64,000 nucleotides of DNA from Tricharina praecox (Eukaryota): contig NW_026250408.1 of assembly GCF_024521635.1 (NCBI RefSeq), positions 558,001 to 622,000 on the forward strand, in the 5' to 3' direction. A program made the position numbers and the translations under genes. Shown here one piece after another: positions 38,201 through 64,000 of this stretch. Numbering within the stretch: position 1 is the stretch's first letter; each line of letters begins with the position of its first letter. Under the pieces are notes generated by a model. It was not told where the DNA came from. It did no database searches and saw only the letters and a program-made list of their open reading frames with translations.

Positions 38201-41200
38201 GTGCACCCTCTATGTACTCTACTATAGTTAACGATTCAACCACCGCCATCAACAATACCCACAAAGAACCTAGACGAATGAATGTATAAGCACCCGCAAC
38301 AGCTGGACGCATGTACCTACCGGCCCCCGGGTACTAGTAGTCCGCTCGCGTGCCCACTGCCGGGGTGGTGAGAAGTGGAGTACCTACTCTGCCTAGGTAG
38401 GTGCGGCAGGCTGTTTTATTTGGACCCAGCGGAGCGGATGGGAGTGTATGCACCGCCGACGACCGACGACCGCGCCTGGAGGAAATATTCACGGTTTGCA
38501 GTGTGATTGGTTGCGCTGCATATCAAGGTGTTGGTTGCAACTTGCGGAAGAGCCATGGCAGCTGAAGTAGAGTACTCCTTAGTTGCTAGTAGAGTAATGT
38601 ATTACTCAGTAGGAGGTGCAGTAGATATAGTAATTAGCCCCGTTTGACGCTCTGCGGGGGGTGGGGGGTTTCAATCGATAGGTACCTTCAGCCAAACGAT
38701 GGTTGATAGTACCGGTATAGTTGCACGTTTGTTGGTCCGTCGATAATTATCGTCCAGAGAAGTGTGTAGTCTACCCAGAGTACAAACGCCTGTGGCTGCT
38801 GAATGATGCTCAGAATCCGGGCTTGAGAAGCACGCCATCGCTTGTTCGAGCGATGTAAGGCATGGGAGGCCGGGGTCACATCCCTTGGTAACACATACCG
38901 AATACCGAGTGACCAGGGTGATTTGCCTAGTTTTGACGATGCATACAATTCTACATACCCAACCAGAGAGAATACGGAAATTTCCAAGGCTGTTCAGCCA
39001 TGTCCGAAAGTTCGCTTGCCAGCCAGTAGAACCACCAATAATTCCGGCAGATTCTGGTTCAAGCCTGATTCAAGTAGGATCCATTACCTATGGCACCCTC
39101 ATATTCGGATATTCCACTGAGAAAACAGTGAAATATCCAGCCAGCCATAACATGTTCAGACTCCGGGGAGGTTTTACTCACTGCGGGTTACAAGCTACAA
39201 GTTACAGCCAGGCCATAGGCTTCCGCTCTTCCGCTCTCACCAAAAGGTAGTAGACTAGTAGTTGTATCGGGAGACTTCGAACTTCGAACTTTGAGGAAGG
39301 CATTTATTTGATAATATGAGCCCTTTACGGAACCCCAGCTTAGTCTTGTCTTTGGCAGTAGCCATAGCATTCCTATTGGCAGTAAGCTCTTCATCGCTGC
39401 CAGCTGTATGTACGGTTTGAAGAGAGCTTGATGTCACTGTGCCCGCGTAGCCCATGTCCACCGTCCGCCAAGGTGTATCCGCAACCAACCTTCAAAGTCT
39501 TTGGAATGTTCAAGGTACTAGTTAAGTACGCAGCGCCGGTGCTGCCGCCACCACTCGCTCCAAGGTTGGGGAGTTTCTTCGGGAATCGGAGATACTACCT
39601 ACTACCGGTGAGACAACGTCGTTTGTCAGAACTACTTACATGGCTTCCGCCGAAGATGGAAATACCTAGGTAAAACACTACTATTATGTACACAGGGGCT
39701 GCGGTCCCTGTGATTCGAGTGTTACATCCTTAGGACCTGGCTCCGTCGGATTCGGGGCCTTAATCGACCGTCCGACCGACCGACCGTCCGGCCCGCGGCG
39801 GTTCTGCATCCATAGGTATCTTACATCGCTGAAACGGGTTCACCGGGCCACCTGGCAATTCTTGCGGGTGTGCTGGTGCTAGATTTGGTGGCTTCCGCTG
39901 GCAGCCTGCTGGCAACCTGCTGGCAGGAGGTTCTTGTTCGTTCGTTTGAGGTCGAAGTGATCGTCTCTCGATTACCCACCTACCTACCTAGGTAGCTGGA
40001 TGAAACAGAAGAAGAAGATATCTAAACATAGGTAGCAAGAGACTTGTCGTCGTGGAATCCTCGTCCACACTTCTATGTATAGGTAGCATGTATGTATGTA
40101 GCGCTGTCACTGACAGCCTGTCAGTGCTGGACTACTACCTAGTAGACGATTTCAAACGTGTCCGGTGTACCAGATAGTGAATGAAGTTGGAAATAGGTAA
40201 TATGCCAACGAGGCTGTGATGTAGAGGTGTTCTATGAACGGAACTGCATCTAGTACTACCTACTGAGTAGGTGCATACTTGCTGGTGCACTCGACCAAGT
40301 ATTCCTGACGTGAATACGATTCAGCACCGTTATACTGCACCATATTATAGTACCTAATACCTATGACGATTTGCTACCCCTCACGATCCCTCACGGAGCA
40401 CCTAGCATGCAGCAGGAACACGACCGAAGCGATGAAGGTTCTTTTCTTTTTATGCTTCGTCACATCACATCCCATGGAGCAACTACCGAGACTCTCAGAC
40501 TTCGACTTTAACTAAACAAGAAGAGACCGAACATGGTGCGGACGAAATGAAACGCAGCAATCGGCGTTCGGAACCAATCCAAGGCTCGAGACATCATGAC
40601 ATGTACATAGAAGATACTTGGTATACGGTTCTTGTGGATGGTTGGTTGGTTGGTCAAATCGTCACGATGTCCGGACTCCGGCCAGCCAGCCAGCTTGCGA
40701 ACTTGCAAACTTGCAAACGGAATCGCTGGCAGGCCGGCCACACAGTACACTAGCCATTGTCTAGCACTCGTTGCTTCTTCTTCTCCTCCACCCCTCCACC
40801 TCTCCACCCCTTCTTCCTTGGTCCTTGGTCACTAACTGGTGTCGTTTGTCGATATCCTGGCGGCTCCCCCTCCCCTGCCTAGCAAAACCGTTGGGCCAGG
40901 AGGAACACGGAGGAATACCAGAGGGGAAGGGCGGGGGGAAGGGGGGAGGGGGGAGGGGAACGGGGGGCTGGACGAGATGAGAATTTCTTCTTCTTCTGAT
41001 GACGACGGACAACGTAACCCACCCATAACCCACTCATCGTATTCCCTCCCTCTCGAGCCTGCGTGAGTGCATATGTACCTGTATATGCAACTGACTGTAT
41101 AGGTGTGTGTGTGTGTGTATGGGTGTGTATCCCTTCCACGATGATGACGGCCTCAGGATCTTCGCTTGACTGCATCAGCAGCATGAAGAGGGGGTTGGAT

Positions 41201-55315: not shown

Positions 55316-56851
55316 TTAAAAGTTGAGAGAAAGGTCCGTGATACCCCAGTGCTACAGAGAATGTCAGTGACTGGTTCGATGGGGGTGGGATGTGCGAGAA
55401 GCATACCTTCTCGGTGGAAAACGTCAAGGCGGTGTCCTCCTTCCAGCCATCGTCGAAGGCGGTGAACAGAATCACGTCCAAGCCCTGGGTGTCAAGAATC
55501 GACTTGACGGCGAGAGCCTGGTTCTCCACGCTGGGAATAGCCTTGTTGTTGGCGGTACCCTGAGTGGGCCAACCAGTCTCTGTAAGGTGCATTAGTATAT
55601 CATGTCACAGTTTGCGTGATGGGATGATGAACGTACCAGTGATGACAATCTGCTTATCGCCGCAGACCTTGGCCATCTCCGTCTTCATGTTGTTCAAGAA
55701 CTCCCCAGTTCCCTCAGCGACGACGTTTCCATCAAAGAACGAGTGGCAGTTGGCCGCGACGTAGTCGGACGCCTCGCAGATAGCAGGGTTGCCCATTATG
55801 GCGACGAAGGTATCGACACCAACGACGGGACCAGTGTATCCGACGTCGGAGCTACGGAGACGCTCACGGCTGGAGTTGATGATGCCGGCGAATTCGCTCG
55901 CAGTCTTCCTTCCAAAGTTGACAACCTCATTGCCGATGGCGACGGTGTGGACGGTATCCCAGTTTCCGTCGACGTACTCGATAAGGGTCTCCAGCTCTTC
56001 GAGGGGCTTGTCCATGTTCCAGATACCGGGCATGACCTTGATGTTATGAGTCTTCGCGGCGGCGATCACGTTCTGAATCTGGCTGCAATCTACACCGTAG
56101 AGACGGATGGGGCTGTACTCCTTGATCAAGGCGATGTCGGCGGCGACTTCTTCGGTGGTCTTGCACGCATTATCGGCATGGTATGGCGAGTAGACAATTC
56201 CGGGCTTGCTGCCACCTCCGGGCGGGTAGGTTCCCGACACGTACGGCGTACCGGTAGCAGCCGGCTTGGTCGAGGAGGAGGAGGACGACACAGGGGCAGC
56301 CAAAGAAGATGAATAGACAGTGGTAGGCTCCGGTGCCTCTGATGATGTCGTCGGCACCGGTACAGGTATGCTTGAAGTGGAAGCAGTGGTCGGCACGGAT
56401 ACGTACACCGATGTTGGAGTAGTCTTGACCGCCGAGGTGGTAGCCTCAGCCGGAGGCTGGTAAACTACCGTCGAACTCGACGAGACCGAAGTCTCTTCAC
56501 TAGGGGAATCGATCACGGGGGTAGCCGTCTTCGACACCACCGCGGTCTTGGTGACGGGTGGCCGAGTGCCGTAGACCGTAACGGTCAAGGTATGGGGAGC
56601 ACTCGGGTCAACAGTGTTGCCCTTCTGATCAACCCACACAGTTGCGGCAGTCGAGTAGCAAGTTGCAACCTTGGGAGCTTCAGAAACCCGCTTGTGGAGA
56701 GCACCATGTCGTCGTCCTGGTTACGAACGGTGAGTAAACGTCCACAGAGCAACACCGACGGGGAGTGGAACATACTGTGAGGCGAAGCAGCTGCCAGCGA
56801 AGAAGCAGCCAAAGCCGCAACCGCAAGATTGATCAAGGACATCCCGAACAT
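55316..56851 (-). CDS. secreted GH17 beta-1,3-glucanase/glucosyltransferase, Scw11/BtgE-like, with a Ser/Thr-rich region; 4 exons
   Basis: Signal peptide, S/T/P-rich linker, GIVYSPY..CKT, IRLYGVDC, VAIGNEVV, AANCHSFFD, VITETGWPT (spliced), FTAFDD and EK-HWGI. Confidence 0.9.
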
Positions 56852-59113: not shown

Positions 59114-60183
59114 GTGTTGTATTCATCACATGTATGCCGGATAAGACCCAAAGCTCCTAGTGACAGCTTGGCATAGATAAAGCTTTCAACTTTGTTCGCT
59201 ACGCACGCAGGGCACTCGCCCTTCGCGACCTCCGCATCCATAGTCGTCACTCGCTTCTATCCCTCGTTCCGACACGCAGCCCCCGCCTCAAAAGACCCCG
59301 CGCTCGAGTGGGGATCGATCCTTCCTTCCTTCTACATACCGCATCCTACTAGGCCTTGATCGCTAGCACCCCGGACTAGGTACATTCTACCTACCTGGTC
59401 ACAAACCACCACTCGATCATCCCACGACACTTACTCTACTCCATAGCATGTCCACCACAACAATGCCACAAACAGAGCCACTGCCGCTATGTACTCTACA
59501 GGTCCCCGCCGCGATACCCGACGGACGTACTAAAGACGTGGGAGGGAGGATGTACCCGAGCAGTGATTGTACCGTACCGAACCTCCGGCGGCGAACCGAA
59601 ACTGCCGCCAGGTTGCCTCTGCGACATGTAGAGTACATCCAAACCTGCTTCGTGGTTGATATGCTCCTCCTTGGGAGCCATTATTGGCTTACATACCAAG
59701 GCTCTGGGCGGGTCGTTGACCATACGGCTCTCTCCCTCACCCGGCCAGCCACCCAGCCGCCGATGGAGCAGGTACACGGCTTTTACAATCGGTCGAGATA
59801 GACAGTCTTCCAAGATCACCACCAGCTTCGGCTTCCTAGCGTCGAAGGATGCATTGCTTTGCTACGGCTATACCTCCCATGCTTATCCGCTGGGTGATTA
59901 GACGTCGAACAACACTGGGCGTTCGCGGGAAAATATCCGCGGGCGTTTTCTGTCGAGTTTTTCTCTTTCTTCAGGCCAACCTCCTTCTACTTGGAGTACT
60001 TGAGCTGCTGCTATGAGGTGCGAAACTGACGTGAGCATCACATGGTCTCTGATTCGCTCTCTCTCTCATGAAGTATCATTAATCACCCCATCTGCACGAG
60101 CAAAAAACAAACAAACAAGAGCATCATCCATCCATTAAGCGTATTGTCTTGCAATCTCATTCCCGTCAACTCATCGTAACCCT

Positions 60184-60695
60184 CTACAAAACCAGTACAC
60201 CAGCCGCGCCAACAACAGCCAGGACACCGAAGTTGACGACGTTCATTCCGGCAGCACCGGTAGCAACGGCGGCAGCCGAGCTAGCGGCTGAGCCGACCGC
60301 ACCCGAGGCCGACTCGCGAGGACCGTCGCAGTCCCAGTGGTTACCGTGGGACACGCAGCCGACGGACTCGGTGGGGCTGGGGCCGGCGCTGTGGCTGCCG
60401 CTCGCGTGGTCGTCGTGGTCGTCGTGGTCGTCGGCGTGGCCGGTGGCCGAGGACATGGCGGCGGAGCCGGAGGCGGTGGGGCTGCTGATGTTAGTGATGG
60501 ACGCTGTGCGGGAGGGGGGAGAGGGCGTACCAGTCCCAGTGGTCGCCGTGGGAGACGCAGTTGGCGGACTCGGTGGGGGATGCTGTTGACCGTTAGTTAT
60601 AGACGAGGAGGAGGATGCGGGTGGGACTAACGCTGCTGGGCGCTGACGGCCATGGCGAGAGCGGCGATCGAAAGGAGGGTGGTGGATAACTTCAT
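60184..60695 (-). CDS. small secreted, probably GPI-anchored, His/Cys-motif cell-surface protein (about 138 aa); exons 60695-60632, 60582-60531, 60484-60184
   Basis: Signal peptide MKLSTTLLSIAALAMAVSA, two PSPTESxxCVSHG[D/N]HWDC repeats flanking HADDHDDHDDH, and a hydrophobic C-terminus VVNFGVLAVVGAAGVLVL. Both introns have GT, CTAAC and CAG. Confidence 0.85.
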
Positions 60696-62758
60696 TTTCG
60701 CTTTTTGTGTGTGTGTGTGGGGGGGGGGGGGTGCTTCGAATTTGCTGGTGGGTGGGGGTGGGCCGTGAACGAGAGTGTGATGGTGAGGGTGGGAGTGGGA
60801 GTGGGGAGAGGAGGGAGACCGCGAGGTTTGTGGGCTGGCTGTATGTATTTATGTATGCGGGCCAAACAACAACTAGTTCATTCATTCCTACTCCCGCCTA
60901 TGTAGAGTACATACAAGAATCAAGATGCAAGGAGAACTTCCCGTCTCCTCCTCAACCCCCCACGCTGGCTGCAAAGAAATTGCCGTTAGGTAGGTGGTGG
61001 TGGGAACACGCTTGGCACACCTTGATGGCTGGCTGGCCGCTGGTCGACTGCTGGTCGATGACGGGAGAACTCCCGAAGTGTTAATCAAGATGCATGGCTG
61101 GCTGGGTGCGTGCATAAACCTCTGTATAACACCGTATTGCTGTGCTCGGCGATTTAGCACATCGCACATACAGTTCCAACGGTCGGTTCCACAGCAGCTG
61201 TCACCCGTGCTTTCGGCGGTGAAGATGATATGTAACTACTACTCTGCTCGTGTTCACGGTCAATGGAACAGCATGAACGAGAACTTAGAAGGTACTTCCG
61301 CGGGTGAGATGGCTGGATGGCAGGATTATGGTCATCGCAGTTTCCAGTATCTAACTAGCTCCGACAGGAACCTTGGTGGGCACTACACGCTGCCAAGCTG
61401 TAAAACATCTTCCGTTCGCGTCGTTACGTGCATGCATGGAGCGATGTTCATATGGAGTCACTCGCGTGCCAGCTGACTTGTCACTTTTTCACCGGCGGTC
61501 TGCTGGGCTGGGAAACCAGCAGAAAGAGGGGTGGAGCCACGCTTGAGAGATCTTGGGGCGAATTTCAGTTGCGAGCATCAGGCAGGGAGAGCGCACCGCC
61601 TGTCCATCCTCGGCAACAATCCGATTCTGTTCAAAACTCTCTCAAGAGTAGAGGTGAATCGCTAGAGTAGCCCAGCGAGGCGGGGCTCTATGTATTGTAC
61701 TCTAGCCACGGTACGTTGCGCCAACAGCAGTTTACACTACTCTAGCAGTGTCATCCCCAATCCTCCAAGTTCGTCACAGAATCACCATCAGTGATGACAG
61801 TGGCCTTTGGCCTTCACCTTGCCAGAACCTTGGTGCTTGGATCCCTCGATCTTGGTGAATTCGGAAGTAGGAGCCATCAAGCACTTCGGGAGAAAATTTG
61901 GCAGTAGCTACTCCTACTTCAGAACATTGACCTTCAACTCGAGAGAGAGAGGATCTTCGATATCGTTTACCCTCGGAGTTTCGTCTCTTCCAAGAGGATG
62001 CACGAGCCACTCCACTCACCCCAAGCGATGTTCCAAGGAAGTGGGAGATCTGGCCACTCACGGTCTATGACGGGAGGACGATTACCGGTATCGGGGGGAG
62101 GGTTGTTCCTGCATGAGTACCGGCAGTGTGGGATTAGTATCAACGTACTCATTTTGTACATACCTGATTGCCAGAATGCGGCCCGCACCTATGGATGAAA
62201 TTAGAAGCGCCAGGCGCGAGTGAGCCGCCGGCAAGTTGCGATTGTTGACGAGACTTCAATATCAAAAACGAAGGTCTCTGTAAAGTACTACACGAGCAAT
62301 AGGTACGGTGATGAGGCCAGCTCGAGGGCTTGCGTACGCATAATTGCGCAGGTTCCCATCTCTGCGAAAGCTTGAAGATGTACAGGACGTGAATCACTCG
62401 CAACGCCATCTTGCCGATATTTACGAGAACATGGGCTGCACCGCTTCGGCTGGCATTACGAGCACGCTTAGGAGTGAAAAAGTCCAAACTCTACCTATTT
62501 CTAGACTCAGATGCATGTTCCAAGCACACACTCGAAATAGTATCCCTCGAATTCTTCCAAGCTCCCGCCTTGCTCTTCACCCGGTCGCCAAAACCCGCAT
62601 ACACATATATCACCGCCGTGCTCGATCCAGCATCTAGGTAGCATCTAAGCCCCACTTACGCTTTTTAACCTTCCAACCTTCACCTTCCACCCCAAATGGC
62701 AAAAACCAACCCCACCCTTCTCGCCAAAAAGCACCAGCACTCGAGCACCGAGAGCCTC

Positions 62759-62831: not shown

Positions 62832-63576
62832 ATGTTGATGGTGGAGGTTCGTGATTGACGGGTATGATACGGTATTGTATCACTCGGAGTCTACGGGTCA
62901 CGTGCATACATAGCTGGTGTGTGCGTGCAAATAGTTTAGAAGCTGCAATGAGGGTTCACCATGAAATGGCAGACCAGTGAGTCCTCATGGGATATGCTTA
63001 CTGATTACTTACTCCAAACCTCATGCGATAGGTACACATGTAGGTAGGCCACGTTATATCTCCCTGTCTCCTTTTCCCCCATCGCAGCATCGTGTACCTA
63101 ACGTCTTGTGGGTTACAGGCTTACATCTTGCAAGCGCCAACATGGCCGGTAGAGTACCTGCTACGGTACCACCTCATTAGGGTGAACGTCGGTGGGTCAA
63201 CCCACCAGCTTTAGCTCTGGCACCACCCATTCAGGGTCTAGGCTAACTAAGTCACAGCTGAAGCGTCAAAAGAAGTCTGTTGAAGCGGGGTATCACGCAT
63301 AATCCATCTTATGTATGTACCAAACTCACTACACGAGGCGGCTTTCCGTTCGCATGAAACGCCCGTACCCGGTGACACATACATTCATTCATTCAGACAC
63401 TATCCAACCGAGTAAAGCAAGGGCGTCCAAGCGCAATACACACAACACTCCGTAACCACAGATGGGAACCCTTCGCAATGTAGAAAGAAAAGAAAATGGT
63501 ATATCCAAACCAAAAGAGAACGCCCAAGAGCGCCCTGAAAAACACGTACAAAAACCATTTCAGCCATTGCGAGAAA

Positions 63577-64000
63577 TCAAATCTGACAGTCGATGTAAGC
63601 CCATATCCGAGAAACCAGTTGGAAAGTGTCTCTACCTGCAAGTAGTCCATCATGCTTTCCAGCGGATGTCTCCTGGTTTGTGTATCCGAATCCGACCACT
63701 CCCCAGAGGCAGCAACAGAGCCCCCCTCGCTGGCTCTGAGTGGTGTTTTTCCGGCCTTGTAGGCTTCCCACTCGCGCCCGACCATCCGCATCACCTCTTT
63801 CAGGGGGGATCCAGGGTTCTCGCGCTTGATTCTAGCCATGTGTTGCTTGGTGAAGGTTTGGTACTCTGTCAGCGGCTTCGGATCGCGGAGGACAGGCTTT
63901 GTTTGGAGTAAGACGCCCAGTCGACACCGCGGGCACCTCATGCGTCCGACATCCTTGGGTTTGGACTGCTGCTTCCAGACGTACGAACAGTGCTCCGTCT
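63577..64000 (-). CDS. 3' end of a SprT-like/HMG-box protein (zinc-ribbon-like Cys segment followed by an HMG-box-like segment); partial
   Basis: C..YVWKQQSK.KD..RMRCPRC..VLLQTKP then TEYQTFTKQHMARIKRENPGSPLKEVMRMVGREW. A likely terminal intron 63635-63583 gives ...MDYLQI-stop. Confidence 0.65.

Follow-up and report, generated by a model that had tools for sequence, protein, structure and literature searches.

What might a short, probably secreted protein built around two ten-residue motifs of cysteine and histidine do at the surface of a fungal cell? The question is raised by a gene near the end of a 64,000-nucleotide stretch of the Tricharina praecox genome (contig NW_026250408.1; hereafter the window, with positions counted from its first letter). 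Current accounts of how fungi acquire zinc invoke ZIP transporters and the secreted zincophore Pra1/Aspf2, and several fungi are without Pra1. The reading that we favour, and regard as reasonably probable, is that the protein would act as a tethered zinc antenna, capturing scarce Zn2+ at the cell surface for delivery to ZIP importers. It was reached by sequence comparison, which also supports the metal-binding role proposed by a first-pass annotation made from the letters of the window.

Gene structure and protein product

The hairpin gene lies on the minus strand at 60184-60695, with its ATG at 60695 and its stop codon at 60186-60184 (Table 1). Two short introns had been predicted by the first-pass annotation, and spliced joints were sought over the region 59900-61000 in contigs from two public runs, X1 and X2; these were typed as RNA by guess, and spliced joints in them indicate that transcripts are present, being uninformative on expression level or response to zinc. 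Both introns are found removed. The joint of intron 1 occurs in the X2 contig only, the X1 contig keeping this intron unspliced, and the joint of intron 2 occurs in one contig of each run. These joints establish both introns as genuine and show that, of the CAGCAG tandem pair closing intron 2, the downstream acceptor is taken; each intron has GT..AG ends and a CTAAC branch site. The product reads HWDC followed by PTASGS at the second junction, and the extra serine predicted there falls away. The final cysteine codon of hairpin 1 is split by intron 2 (tg and c), its last base being 60481.

Exon 1 translates as MKLSTTLLSIAALAMAVSAQQ and is supported by the X2 contig, which spans 60632-60693 and continues for 40 more letters in the 5' direction. 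Exon 2 (60582-60531) yields [P]SPTESANCVSHGDHWD, also written PSPTESANCVSHGDHWD, and two bases of the cysteine codon. Exon 3 encodes, in this order, the linker with HADDHDDHDDH, PSPTESVGCVSHGNHWDC, a Ser/Ala spacer, the tail GMNVVNFGVLAVVGAAGVLVL and the stop codon; its product is 100% identical to the NCBI protein P0003, a T. praecox hypothetical protein that corresponds exactly to the C-terminal 123 residues of the spliced product. The NCBI model begins at the internal Met15, which is 14 residues too late, and misses most of the signal peptide (60653-60695). Use of the upstream ATG is supported by conservation of the signal-peptide N-terminus in a Sphaerosporella brunnea relative (P0005) and in the metagenomic locus L001, as well as by the 5' letters of X2.

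Retention of intron 1, as in X1, leads to an in-frame stop after the donor (...AQQR-stop), so that a truncated product would come from the retained form; a related ENA model (P0165) also reads through intron 1. Directly upstream of the start codon, on the gene strand, stand about 13 consecutive C and a (CA)n tract (60700-60740), and read placement skipped 60694-60814 as repeat. On the other side, the X1 and X2 contigs both extend 456 nucleotides past 59900 (59444-60184), which could represent a 3' untranslated region of about 740 nucleotides or overlap with transcripts of a convergent gene relic. The assignment as an untranslated region reaching to about 59444 was withdrawn, in view of that relic and of the contigs being strand-blind. 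An Rfam search of 59300-60250 gave no matches.

The spliced product has 137 amino acids, among them 9 His, 10 Asp and 4 Cys. It consists of a signal peptide, hairpin 1 (CVSHGDHWDC), a Ser/Ala linker with the run HADDHDDHDDH, hairpin 2 (CVSHGNHWDC) and a hydrophobic tail of the glycosylphosphatidylinositol (GPI) type; the signal peptide, the two Cys-bracketed His motifs, the His/Asp linker and the hydrophobic tail of the first-pass annotation are thus all present in the spliced translation. Its view that there is no catalytic domain agrees with the search of the spliced product against a local Pfam copy, which gave no match (PF28209, discussed below, is absent from that copy). Judged heuristically, the signal peptide is MKLSTTLLSIAALAMAVSA followed by QQ, with one Lys, an uncharged run of 17 residues, Val at position -3 and Ala at -1. 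The relative PADG_03277 has a SignalP4 D-score of 0.792 in the supplement of PMC5040785. At the other end, the last charged residue is at position 95 of 137, the hydropathy of the tail is 2.3-2.6, and a [ST][GA]GA region ahead of the hydrophobic tail is conserved in the family alignment; several homologues are labelled "GPI anchored protein" by their sources. Judging from these sequence features, the protein is probably secreted and held at the surface, either by a GPI anchor in the plasma membrane or by a cross-link to the wall. The mature region comprises 93 residues, with 13 Asp and Glu and 9 His; 58% of it is Ser, Thr, Ala, Gly or Pro.

A family of His-triad hairpin proteins

The two repeat units of the gene are identical at 42 of 48 nucleotides. 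Against a repeat hidden Markov model (HMM), derived from 248 units of other family members with the protein's own clade left out, unit 1 (hairpin 1) scores 38.6 bits and unit 2 (hairpin 2) 42.8 bits, and the maximum reached by 200 shuffles of the protein is 4.2 bits. Because both units score so far above the shuffles, we regard membership of the T. praecox protein in the PF28209-type family as secure, despite an empty precomputed Pfam column; the hairpin duplication is likewise judged to be real and not a product of chance.

PF28209 is listed in the protein atlas as His-triad_hairpin of Pfam 38.1 (and PF28210 as DUF8375), and its Ascomycota clusters appear there under the name "GPI anchored protein". 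With exon 3 as query seven proteins were found, six of them flagged PF28209 and P0003 not. A phmmer search links P0003 to the PF28209 member P0004 with an E-value of 2.3e-16, and P0004 in turn retrieves 205 clusters at 50% identity (E<=1e-3), 96 of them at E<=1e-10. The Aspergillus clavatus member P0042, used as query, finds 397 clusters at 90% identity with lengths of 103-331 amino acids, and all 120 that are listed are flagged PF28209. Architectures and motifs were counted in the 150 listed representatives of the 205 clusters: at least one C-x5-H-x2-C motif is present in 145 of the 150, and 143 are no longer than 270 amino acids. Of these 143 short relatives, 64 combine a starting Met and hydrophobic stretches at both termini with one or more motifs, 45 of the 64 also having a run of at least five His, Asp or Glu residues. 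Named members are spread over Pezizomycetes, Orbiliomycetes, Sordariomycetes, Eurotiomycetes, Dothideomycetes, Leotiomycetes and lichen-forming fungi; the genera represented include Blastomyces, Paracoccidioides, Fusarium, Aspergillus and Orbilia. Pfam already has a curated entry for the domain family; a literature search found no publication on the PF28209 family, its motif or DUF8375, and to judge from that search the pairing with ZIP genes and the promoter enrichment described below are not in print.

A second architecture has 6-10 hairpins with proline-rich linkers of the PPGVPEPT type, often after DUF8375, and a hydrophobic tail at its end. It is seen in the metagenomic loci L040-L043 (for example L043, 9108-10262), on contigs of 0.6-1.1 Mb of which one is named TARA, and in P0011, P0012, P0020 and P0114.

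The hairpin motif and its predicted structure

The family consensus, taken over 281 motifs, is [GAP]-P-S-P-T-E-S-[VI]-G-C-E-P-H-G-D-H-W-H-C-[DE]-G-P. Counting from the first cysteine of the ten-residue core C-E-P-H-G-D-H-W-H-C, His4, His7 and both Cys residues hardly vary, if at all. Of the 281 motifs, 233 have His and 45 have Asp at position 9; at position 2, 172 have Glu and 42 have Val. In T. praecox both hairpins read H-G-[DN]-H-W-D, with Asp9 for the third His and Val2 for the usual Glu2; against the family consensus, the third triad His is thus seen to be replaced by Asp, as the first-pass annotation proposed. Proteins in which every hairpin has Asp9 are few, only 10 of the 145 motif-bearing listed proteins.

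An AlphaFold2 model, calculated with an alignment of 33 sequences, predicts a mostly disordered chain, with a mean predicted local distance difference test score (pLDDT) of 59.8. Order is confined to the two motifs, where the pLDDT reaches 74-77, a moderate confidence; elsewhere it is about 50. Hairpin 2 is modelled as strands 67-69 and 74-76 of P0003 (C-V-S and W-D-C) around an H-G-N-H turn. Cys1 would lie opposite Cys10, and the two probably form a disulfide clamp at the base of the hairpin. Residues 2, 4, 7 and 9 would be located on one face, with residues 2 and 9 facing each other across it, and this geometry fits the covariation of positions 2 and 9. The counts are 160 for E2/H9, 10 for E2/D9, 73 for non-E2/H9 and 35 for non-E2/D9, giving an odds ratio of 7.7 and a Fisher P of 8e-9 with phylogeny ignored; on the 87 distinct motif strings they are 24, 4, 35 and 21, respectively. 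A canonical hairpin would present three His and one Glu, matching the ligand set of the streptococcal protein PhtD, and the T. praecox hairpins (Val2, His4, His7, Asp9) would present two His and one Asp. Matching the family profile to solved structures gave a His-tagged nanobody as its sole hit (E 0.19), which is not a real one.

Hairpins fused to, and encoded next to, ZIP transporters

Domain content was compared in 23 longer relatives. Nine are ZIP transporters, eight carry DUF8375, one carries an HRXXH domain (Pra1/Aspf2-type) and one GH18; of the rest, one has PF20684 and PF27998 and three have PF28209 alone. In the ZIP fusions two or three hairpins are placed between a signal-like N-terminus and the permease, which in P0017 was located at residues 191-506 by a local Pfam check. 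P0029 has an HRXXH domain at 21-253 (by the same kind of check), and the hairpin closes its tail, at the place where Candida albicans Pra1 has its CHTHXXGXXHC motif. Peptides of that Pra1 tail are reported to bind zinc (PMC12663325, PMC9175090). The comparison with Pra1 and ZIP proteins made by the first-pass annotation holds up: ZIP proteins carry the same module at their N-termini, and a Pra1-like HRXXH protein carries it in its C-terminal tail. Support for zinc as the metal is entirely comparative, these fusions included.

The genomic neighbourhood of relatives points in the same direction. A metagenome scan yielded 43 loci, which fall into 29 groups at >=90% nucleotide identity; 19 groups have at least 2.3 kb of upstream sequence, the other ten being too short for assessment. 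In 11 of the 19 assessable groups a ZIP gene is found no further away than about 2.4 kb, eight having none, and in ten of the 19 it is head-to-head, i.e., upstream and on the opposite strand. The remaining case, L020 (5205-8335), has the ZIP gene downstream and on the same strand as a three-hairpin gene, and its ZIP is the most divergent, with 48-60% identity to the others. In all ten head-to-head ZIPs the N-terminal ectodomain carries CHxH[GA] motifs, and a CHFHA copy adjoins the membrane domain. Several ZIP lineages are represented, because the linked C-termini are 48-90% identical between groups, one 98% pair excepted. The hairpin genes next to these ZIP genes encode a signal peptide, a hairpin, an H/D run, a second hairpin and a hydrophobic tail, as does the T. 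praecox gene. The head-to-head arrangement mirrors those of PRA1-ZRT1 and aspf2-zrfC, with another partner; no HRXXH domain was found in the 43 metagenomic loci. Linkage to ZIP transporters, raised in the first-pass annotation, thus holds in relatives and does not extend to the T. praecox window.

These associations bear on another interpretation, in which the protein would be an ordinary Ser/Ala-rich GPI wall protein or adhesin, with hairpins serving structure, pH sensing or metal-dependent aggregation. The composition of the mature region favours it, as does a feature search that places the protein near clusters of small wall proteins of the GPI/CFEM/KRE1 type (scores of 0.81-0.87, to be taken as leads only); a family member in Paracoccidioides also has dN/dS>1 in the supplement of PMC5040785. 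However, only the His, Cys and Asp positions of the hairpins are conserved, and the ZIP fusions, the ZIP synteny and the promoter motif described below would be left unexplained. We consider this interpretation very unlikely.

CAAGGT cores in the promoter

In Aspergillus fumigatus, ZafA is reported to require a CARGGT core within DYYVYCARGGTVYYY, the CAAGGT core being essential for binding, and the aspf2-zrfC promoter to have three such sites (PMC6070888). Four CAAGGT cores are present in the 1200-bp promoter of the T. praecox gene, with 0.73 expected (Poisson P 0.0067), and the nearest belongs to a 15-bp stretch (61015-61029) that agrees with the A. fumigatus ZafA consensus at 14 of 15 positions. 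At least four sites occur in 15 of 1257 sliding 1200-bp intervals, eight of the 15 being the hairpin-gene promoter. In the ten regions shared with a ZIP gene, delimited by the ZIP membrane domain and the ATG of the hairpin gene, CAAGGT occurs 33 times in 19,432 bp, as against 43 times in the remaining 68,878 bp (Poisson 5.6e-7). For six unlinked family genes, the upstream sequence (7,003 bp) has 11 copies, as against 36 in 81,172 bp elsewhere (P 3.9e-4). The pooled loci are not phylogenetically independent, which makes these P values indicative only and belongs with the counter-evidence gathered below. It is the count of the six-letter core, not of the full consensus, that carries weight. A further cluster of three cores within about 100 bp (39464-39566, plus strand), one of them in a one-mismatch ZafA match, was dropped, there being no evident gene or long open reading frame (ORF) nearby.

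A different interpretation has the protein acting as a zinc buffer or shield that soaks up Zn2+ in the wall against excess, or stores it, and feeds no transporter. The many potentially weak sites (the Asp, Glu and His residues of the mature region) would suit such a function, as would the lack of a transporter neighbour in the window, and A. fumigatus ZafA sites are described at some repressed genes too (PMC6070888). It is countered by the head-to-head position of uptake-type ZIP genes in the assessable groups and by hairpins on the outer N-termini of uptake ZIPs. The sole expression report for a relative also speaks against it: PADG_03277, which is family member P0068, is listed as secreted and its Blastomyces dermatitidis ortholog as induced in vivo (PMC5040785), and the B. 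dermatitidis genes induced in the host include PRA1, ZRT1 and ZRT2 (PMC4595289). The Blastomyces locus corresponding to PADG_03277 was not found in the Blastomyces supplements searched, which took in a minor part of that paper's tables. A buffering role appears rather improbable to us.

History of the T. praecox copy

The T. praecox locus and the metagenomic loci L001 and L005/L009 share a convergent exon of a short-chain dehydrogenase (SDR) gene; because of this shared exon, we take the loci to be orthologous. The dehydrogenase is intact in L005 (adh_short, E 5.9e-40). In the window, a conserved piece of the last exon lies only 283 nucleotides from the stop codon of the hairpin gene, and no tblastx match to the body of the dehydrogenase was found in the 50-64 kb part of the window, so the piece looks like a relic.

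Within this clade (P0005, P0138, P0141, P0165, L001 and L005) hairpin 2 always has Val2 and Asp9, and usually Asn6; because of this constancy, the Val2/Asp9 variant appears to be a conserved form and not the result of decay. Hairpin 1 differs between members: S. brunnea and L005 have the canonical form, L001 has none, and in T. praecox it is of the hairpin 2 type. In the L001 gene (1004-1396) no Cys or His follows the first SPTES, but signal peptide, SPTES lead, H/D run and hairpin 2 are all kept. A phase-2 intron common in the family splits the Trp codon of hairpin 1 (CAC TG/GTA...AG/G CAC TGC in L018 and L024, slashes marking the splice sites). The T. praecox donor is located 6 nucleotides further on (CAC TGG GAC TG/GTACGC), and the identity with hairpin 2 extends to that donor. 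The simplest reading would be that hairpin 2 converted hairpin 1 in T. praecox.

Given the altered hairpins, it might be suggested that the protein binds a metal other than zinc (Cu2+, Ni2+ or Mn2+) at the surface, to take it up or detoxify it, and that Val2/Asp9 marks the change of metal in this lineage. Both T. praecox hairpins have lost one His and the Glu, and the gene has no adjoining ZIP gene; His/Asp-rich sequences are promiscuous, and Pra1 binds copper too (PMC9175090). Nevertheless, the module is partnered with ZIP transporters and with a Pra1-like zincin, and not with transporters of the Ctr or NiCoT type; the promoter has four ZafA/Zap1 cores. In P0005 and L005, moreover, an Asp9 hairpin 2 is kept beside a canonical hairpin 1, which suggests a tuned site and not a new function. 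A switch of metal seems unlikely to us.

A tethered zinc antenna: proposed mechanism and counter-evidence

As a zinc antenna, the T. praecox protein would be a small secreted chain, mostly disordered, whose only ordered parts are two 10-residue beta-hairpins. The Cys pair would close the base of each hairpin with a disulfide, and His4, His7 and Asp9 would be displayed on one face. The acidic His/Asp run between the hairpins may add low-affinity sites, and Ser/Ala stalks that can be O-glycosylated would hold hairpins and run at the surface. Under zinc scarcity Zn2+ would be concentrated there and then handed to ZIP importers. Pra1 has been proposed to use its flexible C-terminal arms in the same way. 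We infer that the cysteines are bonded, that zinc is the metal and the residues named are its ligands, that the protein has a GPI anchor and is expressed in response to zinc, and that the metal is handed to a transporter.

Several points weigh against this proposal. The first concern the protein. His/Asp-rich peptides also bind Cu and Ni, so zinc is not the only candidate. The third His and Glu2 are missing from both T. praecox hairpins, leaving two His and one Asp in each, and the sites may be weak or tuned to another metal. Pra1 itself is described as binding copper as well as zinc (PMC9175090). The calls of the signal peptide and of the GPI signal are simple heuristics, and the precomputed Pfam column, filled with PF28209 for all six other matches of exon 3, is blank for P0003. 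A search of solved structures by sequence gave no matches with P0004 and nothing related, and the literature search returned no data on metal binding, localisation or expression under zinc limitation for the T. praecox protein or any family member. The second concern the locus and its relatives. In the 64-kb window, including the 3.3 kb upstream of the gene, tblastn found no ZIP (E<=1) or HRXXH gene; the syntenic relatives L005/L009 have no ZIP neighbour in 10-kb flanks either, L001 being too short to judge. This last locus, the nearest relative, is without hairpin 1 altogether. The third concern the promoter: CAAGGT is a six-letter word from an Aspergillus study whose use by a Pezizomycete Zap1 is assumed, and the full 15-bp ZafA consensus, at most one mismatch being allowed, occurs 9 times in the window where 11 would be expected, which is no enrichment. 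We retain the zinc antenna as the favoured reading, with the T. praecox copy as a variant.

Neighbouring genes and feature coordinates

Two further ORFs flank the locus (Table 1), and neither suggests a link to metals. One encodes an HMG-box (E 1.8e-5) and runs off the end of the window; the other encodes a Ser/Thr-rich product of 371 amino acids with no Pfam match at E<=0.01.

Table 1. Coordinates of the hairpin gene, its parts and its surroundings in the window
Feature	Positions	Strand	Content or basis
Exon 1	60632..60695	-	start codon (60695-60693), signal peptide and first base of Pro codon; translation
Intron 1	60583..60631	-	49 nt, GTTAGT...CTAAC...CAG; joint 60582>60632, 49 nt skipped
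Exon 2	60531..60582	-	PSPTESAN lead and hairpin 1, CVSHGDHWD(C); translation, X1/X2 contigs
Intron 2	60482..60530	-	49 nt, GTACGC...CACTAAC...CAGCAG; joint 60481>60531, 49 nt skipped
Exon 3	60184..60481	-	Ser/Ala linker, His/Asp run, hairpin 2, Ser/Ala spacer, hydrophobic tail, stop
His/Asp run HADDHDDHDDH	60406..60438	-	in the linker; exon 3 translation
PSPTESVG lead and hairpin 2, CVSHGNHWDC	60328..60381	-	42.8 bits against repeat HMM; AlphaFold2 strands
Putative GPI-attachment signal	60187..60231	-	C-terminal hydrophobic tail of 15 residues after small residues ATGAAGMN
Promoter CAAGGT cores	61019-61024, 61370-61375, 61816-61821, 61827-61832	-	gene strand, region 61015..61832
Candidate SDR relic	59776..59901	+	conserved last-exon piece ending ...AYPLGD-stop; convergent
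HMG-box ORF	63393..63998	-	
Ser/Thr-rich ORF	55605..56720	-	

Comparison with known systems

The closest known proteins are the stand-alone "GPI anchored protein" clusters of PF28209 in Ascomycota. They share the lead PSPTES-x-G, the motif Cys-x2-His-Gly-Asp/Asn-His-Trp-x-Cys, the order of domains and an intron inside hairpin 1; the T. praecox protein differs from them by Val2/Asp9, by a donor shifted by 6 nucleotides and by having no ZIP neighbour.

Pra1/Aspf2/Zps1 proteins (PF13933, HRXXH) offer a functional comparison. Pra1 is described as a secreted zinc scavenger with a Cys-bracketed His motif in a flexible tail, its gene being divergently paired with a ZIP gene (PMC12663325, PMC9175090, PMC6070888). 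The T. praecox protein has no HRXXH domain, spaces its cysteines as C-x8-C and not C-x9-C, is predicted to be tethered where Pra1 is released, and is unpaired in the window. Transporters of the ZrfC/Zrt1 type and ZIPs of basidiomycetes likewise carry extracellular Cys-bracketed His motifs ahead of the permease, the latter with two or three His-triad hairpins, and the ZrfC N-terminus is reportedly needed for zinc uptake from tissue (PMC4343018). Lacking a transmembrane permease, the T. praecox protein resembles such an ectodomain as a free-standing module.

The streptococcal Pht proteins (PhtA/B/D/E; PF04270) are similar in another way. They too are surface-tethered and composed of repeated short beta units, with one Zn2+ per unit; PhtD is reported to bind zinc by the three His of HxxHxH (His83, His86 and His88) and Glu63 and to transfer it to AdcAII, and the ligands in PhtA are three His and Asp173 (PMC3842936). 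The core H-G-D-H-aromatic-H is alike in the fungal family, and the multi-repeat member P0020 scores 27.3 bits on Strep_his_triad, for which the cut-off is 27; the likeness to streptococcal triads drawn in the first-pass annotation is also present in the Pfam name itself. In contrast, Pht proteins are bacterial and much larger, have no Cys bracket and consist of three-stranded units. The T. praecox protein gave no match to PF04270 (P0001 at E<=10, P0003 at E<=1), and it does not contain the H-x-x-H-x-H triad, which is present in the family consensus. The resemblance is probably convergent.

If zinc capture is correct, a tethered component would be added to the fungal zinc-acquisition pathway, and the family would amount to hundreds of small surface proteins. 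The hairpin would provide a simple model peptide for zinc hand-over (10 residues, one disulfide), and the natural pair of His-to-Asp and Glu-to-Val changes in the T. praecox gene would be a ready-made test of the metal-binding residues. Taking all observations together, we put forward a broader picture tentatively, as one that falls somewhat short of even chances. GPI-tethered His-triad-hairpin proteins would form a second, undescribed surface zinc-capture system of Pezizomycotina, without a Pra1-type domain, with genes typically head-to-head with a CHxH[GA] ZIP importer and a promoter rich in Zap1/ZafA cores: a eukaryotic, disulfide-clamped counterpart of Pht-AdcAII. The Tricharina/Sphaerosporella gene would have left its transporter. 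Its hairpin 2, conserved there as Val2/Asn6/Asp9 (two His and one Asp), would in T. praecox have overwritten hairpin 1 by gene conversion, possibly resulting in a lower-affinity, faster-exchanging antenna that feeds tighter sites. By analogy, then, the T. praecox protein would join two known kinds of arrangement, the Pra1-ZIP and the Pht-AdcAII systems.

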